Source: Rickettsiales bacterium (GTDB taxonomy: Bacteria; Pseudomonadota; Alphaproteobacteria; Rickettsiales; JABSSG01). Taken from it: DNA of 64,000 nucleotides. Position numbers and translations under genes: made by a program. The notes under the pieces were generated by a model. It was given only the letters and a program-made list of their open reading frames with translations. It did not search any database and was not told the origin of the DNA. Within the stretch, counting starts at the first letter, position 1; the number at the start of each line of letters is the position of its first letter. The stretch is taken from assembly GCA_020049805.1 (NCBI GenBank), contig JAGVLN010000006.1, forward strand, positions 1,002 to 65,001. Reading direction: 5' to 3'. Positions 4,427-48,697 of the stretch are shown piece by piece.

Positions 4427-5527
4427 TTAAATTCCATAAAATTTTTTTGCATTATCAATAATATTATCAAACTCCTCTTCATTAGGAGTTGTATCATTTG
4501 CTCCCCAAATAAATGTGCCTCCTATAACACCTATATCGTTCCCACACTCTTTATTATTTTTTTTAGGAAAAATATAAAAAGCGCGTTTACATTTTTGATT
4601 ATGTTTATTTTCTTCTTCATTCAAATAAACTAACAAGGTGTAATTAAGATCTTTAGGCTTTTGGTTTTTCAAAGTAATCAAATGACCTTGCACTGGAATT
4701 AGCTTTTCATCGTTGTTTAATAAATGAGAGCCAAAACCACTACAGTTAATAATAAATTTTGAATCAACATCTTTAAAACTTGTAACTTTTTTCTTAGAGA
4801 ATTTTATTCGAGATTTTAAATATTTAGTTAAAGCTTTAATCATATATGATGTATTCAAAAAGATACTATCATCATAGACAACCATTTGTCTAGTCGTACC
4901 ATTACCGAAATCTAAAATAACATCTCTAGCTGGTTTAAGAACGATATCTACATATGATTCTAATTGAGACTCTTGACGCGATCTAAAGTAAGCAGGTAAA
5001 ACCACTACTCCTTCCTTAAAAATTGGATATTTATTTTCAGCAATATCCAAATAAAACTTGTAACTATCAATGCCAATCTTATTAATTATTTTTTGAAGGG
5101 ATTGATCATTATTCATTGAAATTGGACAAAGCAGGCCTCCTGCATTCAAAGATGCTATATCCTTAAATCGTTCTGCTAAAATGATAACATTTTCATAACC
5201 ACGTTGAACAAGTTTATATGCAATAAATAATCCTATAATGCCTGCTCCAATAATAGTAATTGAAGATTTTTTATTTAGATTTTTAGAATAAGAAGCAGAT
5301 TCTAATAAATCAATAACATACACGGCAGACCCTGGTGCAAGAGTCCACCCCCCTCCTCCATGACCATAATTATGAGCTATAACCTTATCACCTATTTCTT
5401 CAATACTCATATTGGGTGAACCACGCCTTAAAGGACGGTAACATATAATTTTCTTGTCTAAATGAATATCATTTAATTTAGGAGGAGTAATTTTTATTCG
5501 TTCGTGTTTTGACTTATTTTCTATCAT
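4427..5527 (-). CDS. FAD-dependent oxidoreductase of the D-amino-acid oxidase (DAO) family, circularly permuted
   Basis: 366 aa. The [10 protein letters not shown] motif, normally C-terminal, lies at about aa 52-61 and precedes the Rossmann [15 protein letters not shown] at about aa 92. NCSGFGS and PVQGHLI motifs follow. The protein ends at the IGGTFIWG...[12 protein letters not shown] segment. Confidence 0.7.
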   Translation of the reverse strand: [366 protein letters not shown]

Positions 5528-5681: not shown

Positions 5682-6365
5682 TTAATTTTCTATTTTAGCA
5701 ATCAAAGATGTGGGCTGGAGATTATCGAATATAGCGTGGTTATAAGCATCATTCCAAAAATGCCACTCAAGACATGTGCTTCTATAAAATGCTTCAATCA
5801 TTTTTTCTTTTATCTTGTCAGTTGCATCCTTAGCTAAAGCATCAAAAATATTAATACATTCATCAACAGTAGCACAAAAATCTTTACTAGAATAAGTCTC
5901 AATCCATCGCTCATAAGGATTATACCTTATTGATCTCTCGTTTATAAATAAACCCACCTCTCTATAAACCCAAAAACATGGTAAAATCGCTGCAACTCCT
6001 ATCTCTACCTGTTCAATCAAACAAATCCGTGCTAAATAACTAGTATAACTTAATGTTGCCGGCGTAATTAGCTTAGTTTCTTGGAAATTAAAAATTTGTT
6101 TGAAAAATTGATGCACCACTTCCTGTTCTTGATAAGCAGATTCGGAATAACATAAAAATTTTTTTGCATAATTAGGTGATATCTTAGCAGCTATAATAGC
6201 GAGACACCTTGCAAAATCTTGCAAATAAATGTAATCCTGTTCAATATAATAAGCAAATTTACTTCGATCCAAAGTTCCTTTCATTAACTGCTGATTAAAT
6301 GCATGACTTTTGATCTCATTTATGATCCTAGATGAAAACTCCCAAGCTGTAACAGATAATTTCAT
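5682..6365 (-). CDS. tenA: Thiaminase II / aminopyrimidine aminohydrolase (TenA family)
   Basis: 227 aa helical-bundle family signature (FAYYIEQDYIYLQDF) with a conserved Cys context (LPCFWVYREVG). Last gene of the thi operon. Confidence 0.85.
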   Translation of the reverse strand: MKLSVTAWEFSSRIINEIKSHAFNQQLMKGTLDRSKFAYYIEQDYIYLQDFARCLAIIAAKISPNYAKKFLCYSESAYQEQEVVHQFFKQIFNFQETKLITPATLSYTSYLARICLIEQVEIGVAAILPCFWVYREVGLFINERSIRYNPYERWIETYSSKDFCATVDECINIFDALAKDATDKIKEKMIEAFYRSTCLEWHFWNDAYNHAIFDNLQPTSLIAKIEN

Positions 6366-6369
6366 ATAT

Positions 6370-7185
6370 TTAATCTTCCATTATTTTATTTATTGTTGGC
6401 CAAATATGGTAAAAATGATTAACCGGACCTTTACCTCTCCCCACTGATATCTCTTGCGTTGCCTTCATTGCATTCCATAAATAACTTTTAGCAATCTGGC
6501 ATGATTTAATCAGAGGAAAGCCTAGAGCAATAGATGAGCAAATGGCTGCAGATAATGTACATCCTGTACCATGGGTATTTTTAGAATTAATGCGCTCTGC
6601 TTTTAGCCAAATTTTATTACCATCATTATCTAAAAAGAAATCATTTGAATATGCACTATTTGCATGACCTCCTTTAAGTAGCACCGCCTTAGACCCTAAC
6701 TTTAGAAGTAATTCTCCAAGTTTTTCAACATCACTTAAAGTTGTTGTAAGTCTATAAGCTTCTGGAAGGTTTGGAGTTATTATAGTTGTAATAGGAATAA
6801 GCTTATTTTTTAAAGTTTCAATAGCACCAGGCAAAAGTAATGGATCACCACTTTTGGCAACCATTACAGGATCAAGGATAATAGGTATGTTATAAGCATA
6901 TTTTTCTAGAAAATTTGCCACTAACTTTATAATTGGAGCTGAGAACAACATGCCAATTTTAATAGAATCTGGAATAATATCATCGAAAATTGTTTCTAAT
7001 TGTTCTTCGATGCATTTTAAAGGAATATCATAACAACTTCTAACACCGCATGTATTTTGTACTGGAATTGCAGTAAGCACTGACATACCATAACACCCAA
7101 ATGCTGAGAATGTTTTGAGATCAGCTTGAATTCCCGCCCCACCCGAACCATCAAATCCTGCAATAGATAAACATTTATGCTTCAT
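6370..7185 (-). CDS. thiD: Hydroxymethylpyrimidine/phosphomethylpyrimidine kinase
   Basis: GFDGSGGAGIQADLKT, DPVMVAKSGD and HGTGCTLSAAI motifs of ThiD. 4-nt overlap with thiM. Confidence 0.9.
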   Translation of the reverse strand: MKHKCLSIAGFDGSGGAGIQADLKTFSAFGCYGMSVLTAIPVQNTCGVRSCYDIPLKCIEEQLETIFDDIIPDSIKIGMLFSAPIIKLVANFLEKYAYNIPIILDPVMVAKSGDPLLLPGAIETLKNKLIPITTIITPNLPEAYRLTTTLSDVEKLGELLLKLGSKAVLLKGGHANSAYSNDFFLDNDGNKIWLKAERINSKNTHGTGCTLSAAICSSIALGFPLIKSCQIAKSYLWNAMKATQEISVGRGKGPVNHFYHIWPTINKIMED

Positions 7186-7970
7186 TGTAACTCCTTCATC
7201 TTTTCAAAATCTGGACTATATAATTCGTCAATGAAGTTAAGCCGAAATGTTCCTGGCTTATTAGTTTTTAAATGCGTTAAATTTCCGCATAATCCAAAAT
7301 AAGATGTGGCAAGCATAGCTGAGCTAAACGAATCTGAAGTAACAGCTCTAAATGCAGCAATTACAGCAGTTAAAGAGCAGCCCATACCAGTAATTAGAGG
7401 CATAACAGATGAGCCAAATTTTAAACATTTATGTTTAAACTCATCTACAATAAAATCTATTTCACCACTTATTACTACGGTGCATTGAAGAGATTTTGCA
7501 ATACTACATGCCGTATCTTTTGCATTATCTACAGAATGGGTTGATTCAACACCAAGTGTACGAGACTCTTTTTCTAAAAGCGCTATGATTTCACTAGCGT
7601 TTCCTCTTATAATATCTGCAAACATCATTAAATCTTTTGCAGTTTTAGTACGCACTAAGCTTGCACCAGCACCTACTGGATCAAGAATTATAGGCTTATT
7701 ATATTGTTGTGCTAAGTTAGCTGCTATTTGACATTTTTCAATAAAAGGATAATCTAATGTACCAATATTTAAGTATAAGGCGCTACTGATTTTTATCAAT
7801 TCTTCAATTTCACTTGCTTCACAAGACATTATTGGTGCAGCACCAATGGCAAGTAAACTATTTGCTACAAAATCCATTGTAACATAATTTGTAAGACAAA
7901 AAATAACTGGTTTAGATTTCCTAATCTGTATCAATACTTGTTCTATTTGATCAATCATAATTTTTACCAT
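7182..7970 (-). CDS. thiM: Hydroxyethylthiazole kinase
   Basis: LTNYVTMDFVANSLLAIGAAPIMS, ILDPVGAGAS, IRGNASEI and TGMGCSLTAVIAAF motifs of ThiM. The start may be the internal Met at 7958. Confidence 0.9.
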   Translation of the reverse strand: MVKIMIDQIEQVLIQIRKSKPVIFCLTNYVTMDFVANSLLAIGAAPIMSCEASEIEELIKISSALYLNIGTLDYPFIEKCQIAANLAQQYNKPIILDPVGAGASLVRTKTAKDLMMFADIIRGNASEIIALLEKESRTLGVESTHSVDNAKDTACSIAKSLQCTVVISGEIDFIVDEFKHKCLKFGSSVMPLITGMGCSLTAVIAAFRAVTSDSFSSAMLATSYFGLCGNLTHLKTNKPGTFRLNFIDELYSPDFEKMKELQ

Positions 7971-8604
7971 CTATAATTTTACGAAATTGTTTTACAGTTA
8001 AATTTGGATTAGTAGCTTCATGAATTGCACCTATTGTAGCTATACCATTCGCACCAGCTGACATAACACTCATCAGATTAGATTCATTAATTCCACCTAT
8101 TGCAATAATCGGGTGTTTTGCTATTGCCGATAAATCTCTTAAACCATCTATACCCCAGATCGTTGCGACATCAGGTTTACTAAAAGTTGGAAAAACAGCA
8201 CCAACACCAATATAATCTATCGGCAATTCATTTGCTGTATAAAGATCTGCAAGCGTTTCAATAGAAACACCAATAATTTTATCTGATCCTAAAATTTCTC
8301 GTGCCACTTTAGGATTACCATCAGATTGGCCCAAATGCACCCCTTCTGTATCTAACTTTAAGGCTAAATCAACATTATCATTAACAATAAGAGGAATATT
8401 GTAAGGATCTAAAATTTTCTTAAGTTTTATTCCAAACTGGAAAAGAGATTCATGAGAAGTGTTTTTTTCACGTAACTGTACAGAGGTAATGCCTGAATTA
8501 GCGCAAACTTTAATGAATTGGAGATATTGTTCTAAAGGAACATCGCCCCTATTGGTAACCAGCATAAATTTATAAAACTGATTCTTTAACGATTTATCAA
8601 GCAT
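7951..8604 (-). CDS. thiE: Thiamine-phosphate synthase
   Basis: VQLREK, GVHLGQSD and IAIGGI motifs on a TIM-barrel ThiE-length protein of 217 aa. Confidence 0.9.
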   Translation of the reverse strand: MLDKSLKNQFYKFMLVTNRGDVPLEQYLQFIKVCANSGITSVQLREKNTSHESLFQFGIKLKKILDPYNIPLIVNDNVDLALKLDTEGVHLGQSDGNPKVAREILGSDKIIGVSIETLADLYTANELPIDYIGVGAVFPTFSKPDVATIWGIDGLRDLSAIAKHPIIAIGGINESNLMSVMSAGANGIATIGAIHEATNPNLTVKQFRKIIDGKNYD

Positions 8605-8854
8605 GGTAATATCTCTTTTGAAATAAAGATATTAAGCTGCTTATTACACCGACTATATTACTATACACCACAAAACTAGAAGAGGTGTACGTACCATAAC
8701 CGATCCAGGCTATAGAACATACAAGATAATTCCATAACATAAGTATAGATATGTCATGAGCTGATTTTATTTTATAAGTTTTGTAAATTTGGGGCGTTAG
8801 CCCAATAAATGAAGTAATAGAGGCAATAATGCCAAATAGATCAACAACGCTCAC
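8597..8854 (-). CDS. SemiSWEET / PQ-loop family 3-TM membrane protein (first cistron of the thi operon)
   Basis: 85 aa with three hydrophobic helices and the PQ-loop motif LTPQIYKTYKIKSAHDIS after TM1. Size and layout match bacterial SemiSWEETs. GTG start directly after the riboswitch; 8-nt overlap with thiE. Confidence 0.75.
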   Translation of the reverse strand: MSVVDLFGIIASITSFIGLTPQIYKTYKIKSAHDISILMLWNYLVCSIAWIGYGTYTSSSFVVYSNIVGVISSLISLFQKRYYHA

Positions 8855-8940
8855 ATCTTCCTCCGCTAGTACTAACTAGATCAGGTTATAAGGGTATTTC
8901 TCAGCCAATTAAGCAAATGATAACTAGCACCCCTGGTGAA
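8855..8940 (-). promoter_or_regulatory. TPP (THI-box) riboswitch
   Basis: The minus strand reads UUCACCAGGGGUGCUAGUUAUCAUUUGCUUAAUUGGCUGAGAAAUACCCUUAUAACCUGAUCUAGUUAGUACUAGCGGAGGAAGAU, followed by GUG. All conserved THI-box blocks are present (GGGGUGC, CUGAGA, ACCC, AACCUGAUCU..AGCG, AGGAA). The SD GGAGGAA sits in the 3' strand of P1. Confidence 0.9.
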
Positions 8941-8955
8941 TAAATTTCAAAATGA

Positions 8956-8984
8956 AAATTAATATAGTAATATTACAATGTCAA
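8956..8984 (-). promoter_or_regulatory. Candidate sigma70 promoter of the thi operon
   Basis: On the minus strand, TTGACA (8984-8979) - N17 - TAATTT (8961-8956), about 15-20 nt upstream of the riboswitch 5' end. Confidence 0.35.
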
Positions 8985-9270: not shown

Positions 9271-9999
9271 ATGAGTAGAAAAAAATTTAATAAAGATCCT
9301 ATCGATACTAATCCTAGAAAAGTAAGTATAAACACTGTTACACCTTTTGCAAAGGTTGAAGAAACACCGAGCAAACAATGCTCCCTGGAGGATATTGGCA
9401 ATATCTTAGTTAGCAGTGCAGAAAAAGCCGGATTAATCGAAGGAGTTGCTACTATCGGCATTATGGTTGTATTAGGTTTACCTAATATTGCCTCTTCTAC
9501 TGCTACAGGTGTAGGAGCAGCTTTTGTAAGTTTTGCTATAAGAGAGTATGCCACAAAGTGTCAAGTTAATACACAATATTTAGGCGGGATAGTGGGAGGT
9601 GCTGTAAAATATTCAATAAAAGGTGGAAATCCTATAATTGGCTCGATAAATAATTTGGGTTATGAAGTATGTAATTATTATAACCTAAATCCTTACGGAT
9701 GCGCCTATACAGTAGAAATAGGGGAAGAATTATTAAAAGTTTCTTTATCACAAAATGCTAATTTATATGCAGCTTCTAAAGTAGGCCTTGTAGTAGGTAC
9801 CGCCCTTAGTTTTGCAGTCGGTTTTGTATATGTGCCATATAAAACTTATACGTCTAATGCAGTTAATTCTACTACACCAGATGGAGATTTACAGTCTAGT
9901 AACAATAATAGCGCCAGCGTGCATCCTATAAACGATAATGTTCCAAACCAAATGGACATTGTGGGAGTAAACGAGACACTAGTAGATCAACATGATTAA
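9271..9999 (+). CDS. Hypothetical membrane protein with paired Gly/Ala-rich hydrophobic segments
   Basis: 242-aa ORF, long for an AT-rich (stop-rich) genome. Paired hydrophobic segments GVATIGIMVVLGL-PNIASS-TATGVGAAFVSFAI, plus VGLVVGTALSFAVGFVYV. Hydrophilic N- and C-termini. No family recognised. Confidence 0.5.
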   Translation: MSRKKFNKDPIDTNPRKVSINTVTPFAKVEETPSKQCSLEDIGNILVSSAEKAGLIEGVATIGIMVVLGLPNIASSTATGVGAAFVSFAIREYATKCQVNTQYLGGIVGGAVKYSIKGGNPIIGSINNLGYEVCNYYNLNPYGCAYTVEIGEELLKVSLSQNANLYAASKVGLVVGTALSFAVGFVYVPYKTYTSNAVNSTTPDGDLQSSNNNSASVHPINDNVPNQMDIVGVNETLVDQHD

Positions 10000-10014: not shown

Positions 10015-10893
10015 ATGGCAAATTCCTACCCAACTTTTAACTCATTAGCTTGGTCCCTGCAAGTGGTAGCAATATCATCTACTATTGGCACATTAAGTAC
10101 GTGGTATTATAGAGCAAGAAATGTACATGTTATACCACAATTCTGTAATGGTTTAAAAAATTCTACAGATGTTAGCTTTATTTCTAATTTTCTTTGTGAA
10201 CCTTTAAATTCACTAACCGAATTTTTTTATAACTCAACAGAGAATAGCACTGCTATGACAACATTAGATTTAGTTACGCATGTCAATGTAGTAAGAACTG
10301 TAGATGTTGTAGCAACTTCTGCTGCTTGCTTAGCTGATGTTGTAACTATTGGACCGGTTATATCATCACCAATTCATATTGTTGGAAAAATAGAAGCTGT
10401 TGAAAAAAGTATTGTTCATAGTTTCCTTTCGTGCAGTGTGGCTGGATATAGTATAGTCACAAGCGCTATAGGAGCATTTTATTTAGATACTGCCCTAGAG
10501 GAAGAAGTCCATGCGCTACATGGCACAGTACAAAACTGCCAAGAAAATGGATGCACTAGAGAAGGAAAAGCTATAGTTATTAATAACGGACCAAATCCTT
10601 CCCATAGTCCTATAATTTATTACGGTTTTGAAACAGGATTTAGAACGGCTATAGATAACGCTATAGATATACTTAAAAATGGTGTTACTGCCAATTTATT
10701 TAGCTTAGATAACATAGCTGAATGGTTTAAGTTTTCAGTAATTGCTGACCTAGTAGCAATTGATGTAAATAATACAATATCACAAAAACAAGATTTGCTC
10801 GATAAACTATCGTCAATGCCCTCTTCATTAGGAGATGTACCTCAAACACTCCCATTAGGGGTAACTACCGAGTACGAAAAAACCGAACTCTGA
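10015..10893 (+). CDS. Hypothetical protein (orphan), co-transcribed with 9271..9999
   Basis: 292-aa ORF 15 nt after the previous stop with an AAGGAGAA SD. Several hydrophobic stretches (LQVVAISSTIGTL, FLSCSVAGYSIVTSAIGAFYL). No recognisable motifs. Confidence 0.5.
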   Translation: MANSYPTFNSLAWSLQVVAISSTIGTLSTWYYRARNVHVIPQFCNGLKNSTDVSFISNFLCEPLNSLTEFFYNSTENSTAMTTLDLVTHVNVVRTVDVVATSAACLADVVTIGPVISSPIHIVGKIEAVEKSIVHSFLSCSVAGYSIVTSAIGAFYLDTALEEEVHALHGTVQNCQENGCTREGKAIVINNGPNPSHSPIIYYGFETGFRTAIDNAIDILKNGVTANLFSLDNIAEWFKFSVIADLVAIDVNNTISQKQDLLDKLSSMPSSLGDVPQTLPLGVTTEYEKTEL

Positions 10894-10906
10894 ATTCTAT
10901 GTATTT

Positions 10907-10939
10907 GATAAATAAGGATCATTATGATCCTTATTTATC
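10907..10939 (+). terminator. Hairpin terminator candidate after the orphan pair
   Basis: Perfect 15-bp palindrome GATAAATAAGGATCA-TTA-TGATCCTTATTTATC, 14 nt after the stop. AT-rich stem with no separate T-tract. Confidence 0.45.
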
Positions 10940-11041
10940 ACTATGATATATATTAATATCTTTATTTACTTAAAAATATTATTAACTAATTGAATATTGA
11001 ATAATATAATTAGGTATATAAATTAAAAACTTTTTAATATC

Positions 11042-11566
11042 ATGGTCAAAGTAGTAATTGAAAAATTAGACAGCCTCGATTCAAAAGATCTTATCGATTT
11101 ATGTGATGTGACAGAAGCCACTATGATCGATACTTTTGGCTTTACAATTGGTTTTAAACAATGGCAACCTCCTTTAAGGCATGATATGGAAGCCTATTTT
11201 AAAGGCATAATGATCGTACCGGAACGTCAATTAATTGTAGCAAGACTCGATAACACCATTGTTGGCTCACTTCAGCTATTATTTTCTCCTAAAAATAACA
11301 CTTCATTCTTTGCTGTTACAGTGGACAATCATTTTGTTGTACCATGGGCAAGAAATTTTGGTATAGCTAAAAAGTTATTAGAGTTTTCTGAAAGCTACGC
11401 ACGCGAAAAAGGTTTCAAACTTATAAAACTTAGCGTAAGGTCAGACTTAGATGCAGCTATCAATTTATATGAGCGAGCAGGATATAAACGCTGGGGTACA
11501 TTAAAAAAATATCAAATGCTCGGTAATCAATTTATTAGCGGTTTTTTTTACTGTAAAGACTTATAA
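11042..11566 (+). CDS. GNAT-family N-acetyltransferase
   Basis: 174 aa. Acetyl-CoA binding region VVPWARNFGIAKKLLEFSESYAREKGF and a C-terminal YERAGYKRWG-type motif. Confidence 0.8.
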   Translation: MVKVVIEKLDSLDSKDLIDLCDVTEATMIDTFGFTIGFKQWQPPLRHDMEAYFKGIMIVPERQLIVARLDNTIVGSLQLLFSPKNNTSFFAVTVDNHFVVPWARNFGIAKKLLEFSESYAREKGFKLIKLSVRSDLDAAINLYERAGYKRWGTLKKYQMLGNQFISGFFYCKDL

Positions 11567-48620: not shown

Positions 48621-48697
48621 TGGTGGGCTTGGGGGGACTTGAACCACCGACCTCACGCTTATCAGGCGTGTGCTCTAACCAACTGAGCTACAAGCCC
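48621..48697 (-). tRNA. tRNA-Ile (anticodon GAU), CCA encoded
   Basis: The minus strand reads GGGCTTGTAGCTCAGTTGGTTAGAGCACACGCCTGATAAGCGTGAGGTCGGTGGTTCAAGTCCCCCCAAGCCCACCA. All four arms fold. There is one U-C mismatch in the T stem. Confidence 0.9.

Follow-up and report, generated by a model that had tools for sequence, protein, structure and literature searches.

A TPP riboswitch-controlled, kinase-linked SemiSWEET clade as a candidate family of vitamin B1 facilitators in Rickettsiales and their relatives

Introduction

What is a SemiSWEET, a member of a family that databases name for sugar transport, doing at the head of a thiamine operon? The question is raised by a Rickettsiales genome (GCA_020049805.1), of which 64,000 nucleotides of contig JAGVLN010000006.1 (positions 1,002 to 65,001) were analysed here and are referred to throughout as the window. 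On the minus strand of this window a thiamine pyrophosphate (TPP) riboswitch lies against the start of a small SemiSWEET gene, which is in turn followed by thiE, thiM, thiD and tenA. An earlier, sequence-only reading of the locus had proposed that the encoded protein imports thiamine or one of its precursors. Comparison with related loci in other genomes points to a distinct SemiSWEET clade, the members of which are best explained as facilitators of vitamin B1 entry whose substrate would be trapped by a kinase and whose translation would be switched off by TPP, an explanation that we consider reasonably probable on the strength of gene order, gene fusion and residue conservation.

In 2018 Jia et al. 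(PMC5972207) described the physiological role of prokaryotic SemiSWEETs as wholly unknown, and no later work settling this role was found in the literature that was searched, which reports sugar transport in heterologous assays alone. It was remarked in passing in the same paper that a SemiSWEET gene lies beside one for thiamin pyrophosphokinase (TPK) in Legionella cherrii; that case concerns a single genome and comes without a riboswitch, a gene fusion, the definition of a clade or a proposal of substrate. Beyond this remark, no other link between a SemiSWEET, PQ-loop or MtN3 protein and thiamine was encountered, subscription-only papers being outside the search.

Results

A SemiSWEET-TPK cassette recurs across relatives

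Relatives of the locus were gathered by a genome scan, a metagenome scan and look-ups of exact proteins, which together yielded 33 loci belonging to the clade. With the window counted, these collapse into 24 clusters at 90% identity, derived from Rickettsiales metagenome-assembled genomes (MAGs), Wolbachia, Holosporaceae and rumen proteobacteria. A match to the TPP riboswitch family (Rfam RF00059) is located directly against the SemiSWEET start in 17 of the 24 clusters, with scores of 57.8–72.9 bits, and a TPK gene is found immediately downstream, usually overlapping the SemiSWEET gene, in 20 of the 22 clusters in which the contig continues. The expectation that homologues elsewhere would be linked to the riboswitch or to thiamine genes is borne out by these counts. 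The TPKs of the cassette possess both Pfam domains of this enzyme, i.e. the catalytic and the B1-binding domain. Wolbachia pipientis is among the carriers of the riboswitch (70.8 bits), and the Wolbachia of Atemnus politus has a degenerate aptamer that scores 25.4 bits.

In some lineages no riboswitch is present: the rumen MAG loci L006–L008 show no aptamer even at E ≤ 1, and none was detected on the Holosporaceae contig L039. TPK is kept beside the SemiSWEET gene in both of these lineages, and since the TPK linkage also occurs without the riboswitch, the two features represent independent links to thiamine. The genes flanking the cassette vary from locus to locus, including an MFS gene, rpsA, der, Band_7, COX2 and an aminopeptidase gene, from which it follows that the cassette rather than its neighbourhood is conserved and that the linkage is not just inherited synteny. 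A sugar-metabolism gene adjoins the SemiSWEET gene in none of the 24 clusters, all contexts that could be evaluated being made up of thiamine genes.

The association extends to gene fusion. An exhaustive profile search retrieved a protein of 319 amino acids (aa), P0255, that consists of a complete SemiSWEET fused to a complete TPK, together with a second, N-terminally truncated SemiSWEET-TPK fusion (P0352). Application of the positive-inside rule places the C-terminus of the SemiSWEET in the cytoplasm, an orientation that is compatible with a C-terminal TPK fusion.

Longer versions of the cassette, which additionally contain genes for a HAD phosphatase and TenA, are found at loci L001 and L002. 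Among the relatives closest to the window, P0022, with a SemiSWEET 76% identical to that of the window, displays the order SemiSWEET-TPK-thiE-thiM, and L041 (71% identical) the order riboswitch-SemiSWEET-TPK-thiE-thiM-thiL-thiD-tenA, its ThiE, ThiM and ThiD being 48%, 58% and 65% identical to those of the window, respectively. Judged by this gene order, the window operon is a long operon of the L041 type minus TPK and thiL, an uncommon form of a cassette that is otherwise widespread.

Several further observations were made at these loci. Sub-threshold RF00059 matches occur at the expected riboswitch site in L035, the locus from the Wolbachia of Atemnus politus (4930–5012, 25.4 bits), and in L021 (1976–2091, 31.1 bits), and these may be decaying or divergent aptamers that precede an intact SemiSWEET-TPK pair. 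At L018 / L019 (3501–5154), on contigs of 280–300 kb, the order is riboswitch-SemiSWEET-HAD-TenA, without TPK. The L041 operon contains two tenA copies (10628–11255), of which the one closest to the TenA of the window (61–64%) is split in two frames and is probably a pseudogene or the result of an assembly frameshift. Wolbachia sRNA 46 (RF02625) is encoded near the cassette in L035 (2951–3085, 72.1 bits), and weaker RF02625 repeats are present just after TPK in the Wolbachia locus L038 (approximately 4967–5258).

A residue signature separates the clade from sugar SemiSWEETs

In a set of 126 clade members, six residues show no or almost no variation, namely T14, G18, Y24, N42, C46 and S65, with T14, N42 and C46 present in 124–126 of the proteins. 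At position 14, the Thr of the clade corresponds to Ile, Phe, Cys or Leu in the solved sugar SemiSWEETs and to Leu or Phe in homologues from Endomicrobium; at position 42, Asn is replaced by Phe, Met or Val in the former and by Ile in the latter, while at position 46 Cys gives way to Gly in the solved proteins and to Gly or Ser in the Endomicrobium homologues. The latter proteins are 34–41% identical and, together with the archaeal homologues (L009–L014), have neither a riboswitch nor a thiamine context, for which reason they are treated as negative controls and not as members of the clade. When 150 representatives at 50% identity were considered, the signature was retained in roughly the top 30 and then dissolved into the sugar-type pattern.

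On the second transmembrane (TM) helix, N42, C46 and W50 follow one another at positions i, i+4 and i+8, and N42 and C46 should lie on the face of TM2 that carries the pocket tryptophan. The window protein possesses the full signature (TGYNCWSN), which gives no sign of a substrate differing from that of its TPK-linked orthologues, to which it is 59–76% identical.

The window protein is a SemiSWEET outside the known thiamine transporter families

The SemiSWEET gene of the window (8597–8854, minus strand) starts with GUG and encodes an 85-aa protein with three TM helices, the candidate thiamine facilitator. Its assignment to the SemiSWEETs, already made from the sequence, was upheld by scores above the thresholds of both PF04193 (PQ-loop; 45.1 bits, cutoff 22) and PF03083 (MtN3_slv; 32.3 bits, cutoff 23.7) and by an AlphaFold2 monomer model with three helices (residues 3–28, 37–57 and 60–84; pLDDT 83). 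The best Foldseek matches to this model were SemiSWEETs and SWEETs (probability 0.97–1.0, TM-score 0.5–0.6), a result that is consistent with the assignment at E-values which are not significant for a three-helix fold. At the sequence level the solved SemiSWEET 4rng was matched best (E = 2.3e-8), followed by 4x5m, 9kax and 4qnc. The PQ motif (P21-Q22), which is invariant, is located on TM1, while the pocket Trp and Asn of 4x5m, 4rng, 9kax and 5uhs have their aligned counterparts in W50 (TM2) and N66 (TM3).

The score against the NCBIfam model SemiSWEET_2 (NF037968) was 43.9 bits, below the cutoff of 80, and the protein is consequently treated as belonging to a separate clade of the wider SemiSWEET family. 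Scans of Pfam and NCBIfam at E ≤ 0.01 returned PQ-loop, MtN3 and SemiSWEET models only, with no match to the known transporter families for thiamine or its precursors (ThiT, PnuT, ThiBPQ, YkoEDC, CytX, ThiU/V/W and HmpT), in keeping with the view that the gene does not belong to any of these.

The aptamer encloses the translation start of the SemiSWEET gene

The window contains a single match to the TPP riboswitch, which covers 8841–8944 on the minus strand over model positions 1–105 and, at 65.4 bits, exceeds the gathering score of 54.3 (E = 1.4e-10). The aptamer is complete, lacks the optional second hairpin after CUGAGA, and overlaps the start of the SemiSWEET open reading frame (ORF) with its 3′ end. 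All conserved blocks are present (GGGGUGC, CUGAGA, ACCC, AACCUGAUCUAG...CUAGCG and GAGGAA), which substantiates the riboswitch call of the sequence-only reading. The ligand-contacting core (CUGAGA in J3-2; ACCUGA...GCG.AGG in P4/P5) is found in the window and is invariant over 18 homologous leaders, and the minimum-free-energy fold of the leader alone yields P1, P2/P3 and P4/P5.

The same reading had placed the Shine-Dalgarno sequence in the 3′ strand of P1, and on this point a correction is required. Rfam alignment, folding and covariation all position GGAGG (8860–8864, minus strand) in P4, where AGG 8862–8860 pairs with CCU 8885–8883, so that the Shine-Dalgarno sequence makes up the 3′ strand of P4 and part of the junction. 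P1 does take up an initiation signal, but this is the GUG start codon: from the 5′ strand of the helix, UUCACC (8935–8940, minus strand), UUCAC 8940–8936 pairs in the minimum-free-energy fold with GUGAG 8854–8850, which contains the start codon (8854–8852). The 3′ strand (8850–8857, minus strand) is completed by G8857, and the inner closing pair, C8935-G8857, uses the final G of GGAGGAAG. A spacer of 5 nt separates GGAGG from the start codon. In a thermodynamic model of the ligand-free leader the pair probability is approximately 0.2 for P1 and approximately 0.9 for P4, i.e. P1 is marginal and P4 stable without ligand, in agreement with a helix that closes over the start codon once ligand is bound. 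As the aptamer is not followed by a terminator and leaves no space for a separate expression platform, control of the SemiSWEET gene by the riboswitch would be translational.

Upstream of the aptamer, at a distance of approximately 35 nt, a possible −35 hexamer (TTGACA, 8979–8984, minus strand) can be read from the sequence; this is a weak call, as no canonical −10 element lies at 16–18 nt from it (a TATATT is present only 12 nt downstream) and the promoter scan did not report the site. A minimal start-stop ORF, AUG-UGA (8850–8855, minus strand), lies out of frame over the GUG start (GAUGUGA), and the same AUGUGA occurs in many homologous leaders (L001, L020, L029, L031 and L032); it may be a simple by-product of the P1 sequence or an extra layer of initiation control.

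The helices were further assessed on an alignment of the 18 distinct homologous leaders, on which pairs were counted. Pairing is observed in 92–93% of helix cells, as against 41–58% when the partners are slid, and compensatory changes affect 8–9 pairs, located in P3, P4 and P5 and at the closing pair of P1. In columns 95–97 and 118–120, which form P4, every cell (100%) is paired. C8935-G8857, which closes P1, is C-G in ten of the 18 leaders and U-A in the remaining eight, and is never unpaired, while the outer pairing of P1 is maintained at 75% only. RNAalifold did not call P1 on the 18 leaders because its 3′ strand occurs in two registers, and the helix was then specified by hand. Support for P1 consists of one perfectly covarying pair and the folds of individual sequences, that for its outer part being modest. 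Relatives with an AUG start have CAU in place of CAC in the 5′ strand (UACAU/AUGUA in L004, L005, L024 and L038), and a GUG start, paired with CAC, is used by 11 of the 18 relatives; it is a reasonable inference that the preference for GUG is explained by the requirement for pairing in P1.

The thiamine operon and its surroundings

As described from the sequence, the SemiSWEET gene heads a string of thiamine genes, in the order SemiSWEET-thiE-thiM-thiD-tenA from the riboswitch. All four thi and ten genes, which lie on the minus strand, passed the equivalog cutoffs of NCBIfam: thiE, encoding thiamine-phosphate synthase (7951–8604; TIGR00693, 185.9 bits, cutoff 145.1; PF02581), thiM, encoding hydroxyethylthiazole kinase (7182–7970; NF006830, 277.7 bits, cutoff 180; PF02110), thiD, encoding the kinase of hydroxymethylpyrimidine (HMP) and its phosphate (HMP-P) (6370–7185; TIGR00097, 293.7 bits, cutoff 204.95; PF08543), and tenA, encoding thiaminase II of aminopyrimidine salvage (5682–6365; TIGR04306, 140.4 bits, cutoff 130; PF03070), which is the final gene of the string. 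Overlaps join the SemiSWEET gene to thiE (8 nt), thiE to thiM (at most 20 nt) and thiM to thiD (4 nt), and a gap of 4 nt separates thiD from tenA. The 64 kb contain no match to a HAD phosphatase. A weak tblastn match resembling ThiL (22997–23287) turned out to be PgeF.

A gene for an FAD-dependent oxidoreductase of the DAO family (4427–5527, minus strand) lies 154 nt downstream of tenA; it has a promoter-like site of its own and probably falls outside the thiamine operon. It was rejected as ThiO, since it scored 55 bits against a cutoff of 250.8 and only its FAD-binding N-terminus is matched. On the other side, two adjacent ORFs on the plus strand (9271–9999 and 10015–10893; 242 and 292 aa), for which no NCBIfam family match was obtained, diverge from the promoter region of the riboswitch. 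Elsewhere in the window, a 282-aa ORF (26611–27459, plus strand) matches the C-terminal half of glutamine synthetase alone (approximately residues 208–418 of GlnA) and overlaps a preceding 408-aa ORF (25422–26648); the two could represent a split or frameshifted glnA. Genes for tRNA-Leu(CAG) (34368–34454, plus strand) and tRNA-Ile(GAU) (48621–48697, minus strand) were also identified, the latter being isolated, with no adjoining rRNA in the window. The IspH encoded in the window is 68–72% identical to its counterparts in Rickettsiales endosymbionts, Candidatus Jidaibacter, Rickettsiales bacterium Ac37b and a Holosporaceae bacterium, which points to an uncultured Rickettsiales-like alphaproteobacterium and agrees with the range of taxa in which the cassette occurs.

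Discussion

The arrangement of these elements suggests how the system would operate. The SemiSWEET, presumably as a homodimer, would act as a uniporter through which thiamine, and possibly its pyrimidine or thiazole moieties, diffuses across the inner membrane, whereupon a cytoplasmic kinase would phosphorylate the substrate and thereby trap it. This kinase would be TPK in nearly all relatives; in the window organism ThiM and ThiD would be available as kinases, ThiE would join the two halves of the molecule and TenA would recycle damaged pyrimidine. When TPP is plentiful, the folded aptamer would hide both the Shine-Dalgarno sequence (in P4) and the GUG start codon (in P1), so that translation of the first cistron would cease. 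The downstream genes would probably follow the SemiSWEET gene by translational coupling, given that they overlap or nearly abut one another. A gene that is turned off at high TPP points to acquisition rather than export, and it appears likely, from the genomic contexts described above, that proteins of the clade move a thiamine-related compound inward. Somewhat less secure, yet still favoured, is intact thiamine as the principal substrate across the clade, because the partner gene across the clade is that for TPK rather than thiE, thiM or thiD, and because fusions to TPK exist. For the window organism itself, we would give intact thiamine as the main substrate an even chance.

A number of points weigh against this interpretation. 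The relatives are phylogenetically clustered, and the cluster counts do not correspond to independent events, and both fusion proteins, P0255 and P0352, were predicted from metagenomic sequence. The Trp and Asn of the canonical sugar pocket (W50 and N66) are kept, and the pocket has therefore not obviously been remade. A permutation test in which the energies of cognate and non-cognate P1 duplexes were compared was not significant (p = 0.21), as a result of which strong covariation is not claimed for the outer part of P1. For the window itself, TPK and thiL are found neither in the operon nor anywhere else in the 64 kb, which leaves the conversion of imported thiamine, or of the thiamine monophosphate made by ThiE, to TPP without an assigned enzyme in the window, and a salvage operon of ThiM, ThiD and TenA fits the uptake of HMP, thiazole or aminopyrimidine equally well. 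Across most of the clade the putative transporter gene stands beside the gene for the kinase of the proposed substrate, TPK, while the kinases adjoining it in the window are ThiM and ThiD. A gene for TPK or ThiL may lie in another part of the genome, or the pore may also pass moieties of thiamine; more speculatively, TenA might cleave imported thiamine to supply its re-synthesis.

Import of precursors or breakdown products (HMP, hydroxyethylthiazole, or amino- and formylamino-pyrimidine) that feed ThiD, ThiM and TenA would account for the enzyme set of the window operon, which matches these compounds exactly and lacks TPK, as well as for the SemiSWEET-HAD-TenA order of L018 and L019. Other riboswitch-controlled transporters of thiamine moieties, among them CytX, ThiV and HmpT, have reportedly been described by Rodionov and co-workers in 2002 and in later work. 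The window protein, on the other hand, shares every clade-invariant residue and much of its sequence with orthologues that are linked to TPK, an enzyme that acts on thiamine and to which SemiSWEETs have been fused, and in the closest relatives TPK sits between the SemiSWEET gene and thiE, all of which renders precursor import rather unlikely as the main role of the window protein.

Two other explanations fare less well still. An ordinary sugar SemiSWEET that is co-transcribed with thiamine genes by chance would be in line with the names given to the family in Pfam and at NCBI, where it is listed as comprising sugar transporters, and with the conservation of W50 and N66; set against this are the linkage to the riboswitch and/or TPK in at least 22 non-redundant clusters with differing neighbourhoods, the fusions to TPK, the lack of an adjoining sugar-metabolism gene at any locus, the low score against SemiSWEET_2 and the absence of T14, N42 and C46 from sugar SemiSWEETs, and we regard chance co-transcription as the least credible of the explanations considered. 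It is also conceivable, if highly improbable, that the protein is not an importer, serving instead as a membrane anchor or partner of TPK or as an exporter of thiamine, for example in the provisioning of a host. Gene overlap and fusion could indeed reflect a physical complex, uniporters are bidirectional in principle, and several of the organisms concerned, such as Wolbachia, are endosymbionts. Nevertheless, a riboswitch that turns the gene off with TPP allows its expression under TPP shortage, as would be expected of acquisition and not of export; moreover, the SemiSWEET is retained in the window and in L018/L019, where TPK is missing, and the full architecture of a transporter, with its PQ hinge and W/N pocket, is conserved.

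Facilitated vitamin B1 entry with kinase trapping has a precedent. TPP riboswitches have been reported upstream of pnuT genes. PnuT of Shewanella woodyi was shown experimentally to mediate energy-independent, facilitated diffusion of thiamine, which is subsequently trapped by a kinase (PMC5749112). The pairing of PnuT with TPK thus embodies the mechanism that is proposed here for the SemiSWEET clade, i.e. facilitated diffusion followed by trapping through a co-encoded kinase. PnuT differs in having 7–8 TM helices and in belonging to the Pfam family NMN_transporter, whereas the window SemiSWEET, with three TM helices and 85 aa, would need to form a dimer, and no sequence relationship between it and the Pnu proteins is detectable. 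The fold of PnuC does distantly resemble that of full-length SWEETs (PMC5749112).

With the characterised SemiSWEETs, namely those of Leptospira biflexa (4qnc), E. coli (4x5m), Thermodesulfovibrio (4rng) and Vibrio (4qnd), and BjSemiSWEET1, for which sucrose transport is documented, the window protein shares family and fold, length, the PQ hinge on TM1 and the pocket residues W50 and N66, with E-values that reach 2e-8. It departs from them in presenting the six signature residues in place of hydrophobic residues or Gly, and its clade in being placed behind a TPP riboswitch and in having TPK, rather than sugar genes, as neighbour or fusion partner. As regards regulation, the thiM and thiC leaders of E. 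coli belong to the same RF00059 family and follow the same logic, in that binding of TPP hides the ribosome-binding site; in contrast to these, the window leader has no separate anti-Shine-Dalgarno platform, as P4 of the aptamer takes in the Shine-Dalgarno sequence and P1 the start codon. Within RF00059 the riboswitch is an ordinary representative whose compact platform is built into the aptamer, and it provides a compact example of an aptamer that itself holds both of these elements. What is new is the predicted substrate class for the SemiSWEET family, the fold and the regulatory logic being already known.

Taken together, three genomic signals (the TPP riboswitch, TPK synteny and TPK fusion) tie the clade to thiamine and furnish a hypothesis that can be tested cheaply. 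On balance, we lean slightly towards the view that SemiSWEETs bearing T14, N42 and C46 constitute an unrecognised family of bacterial vitamin B1 transporters, sometimes fused to TPK, by which thiamine, diffusing through them and trapped by a kinase, enters Rickettsiales and some Wolbachia. If true, this would be a new family of vitamin B1 transporters and, at approximately 85 residues, the smallest known, as well as the first SemiSWEET with a defined physiological substrate other than sugar. It would also mean two recruitments of the SWEET fold for vitamins, in the Pnu proteins and in the SemiSWEETs, and would correct “sugar transporter” annotations that are being spread by metabolic reconstructions. 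For the organisms concerned, the clade would represent a candidate route by which vitamin B1 passes from their hosts into obligate intracellular Rickettsiales and some Wolbachia.

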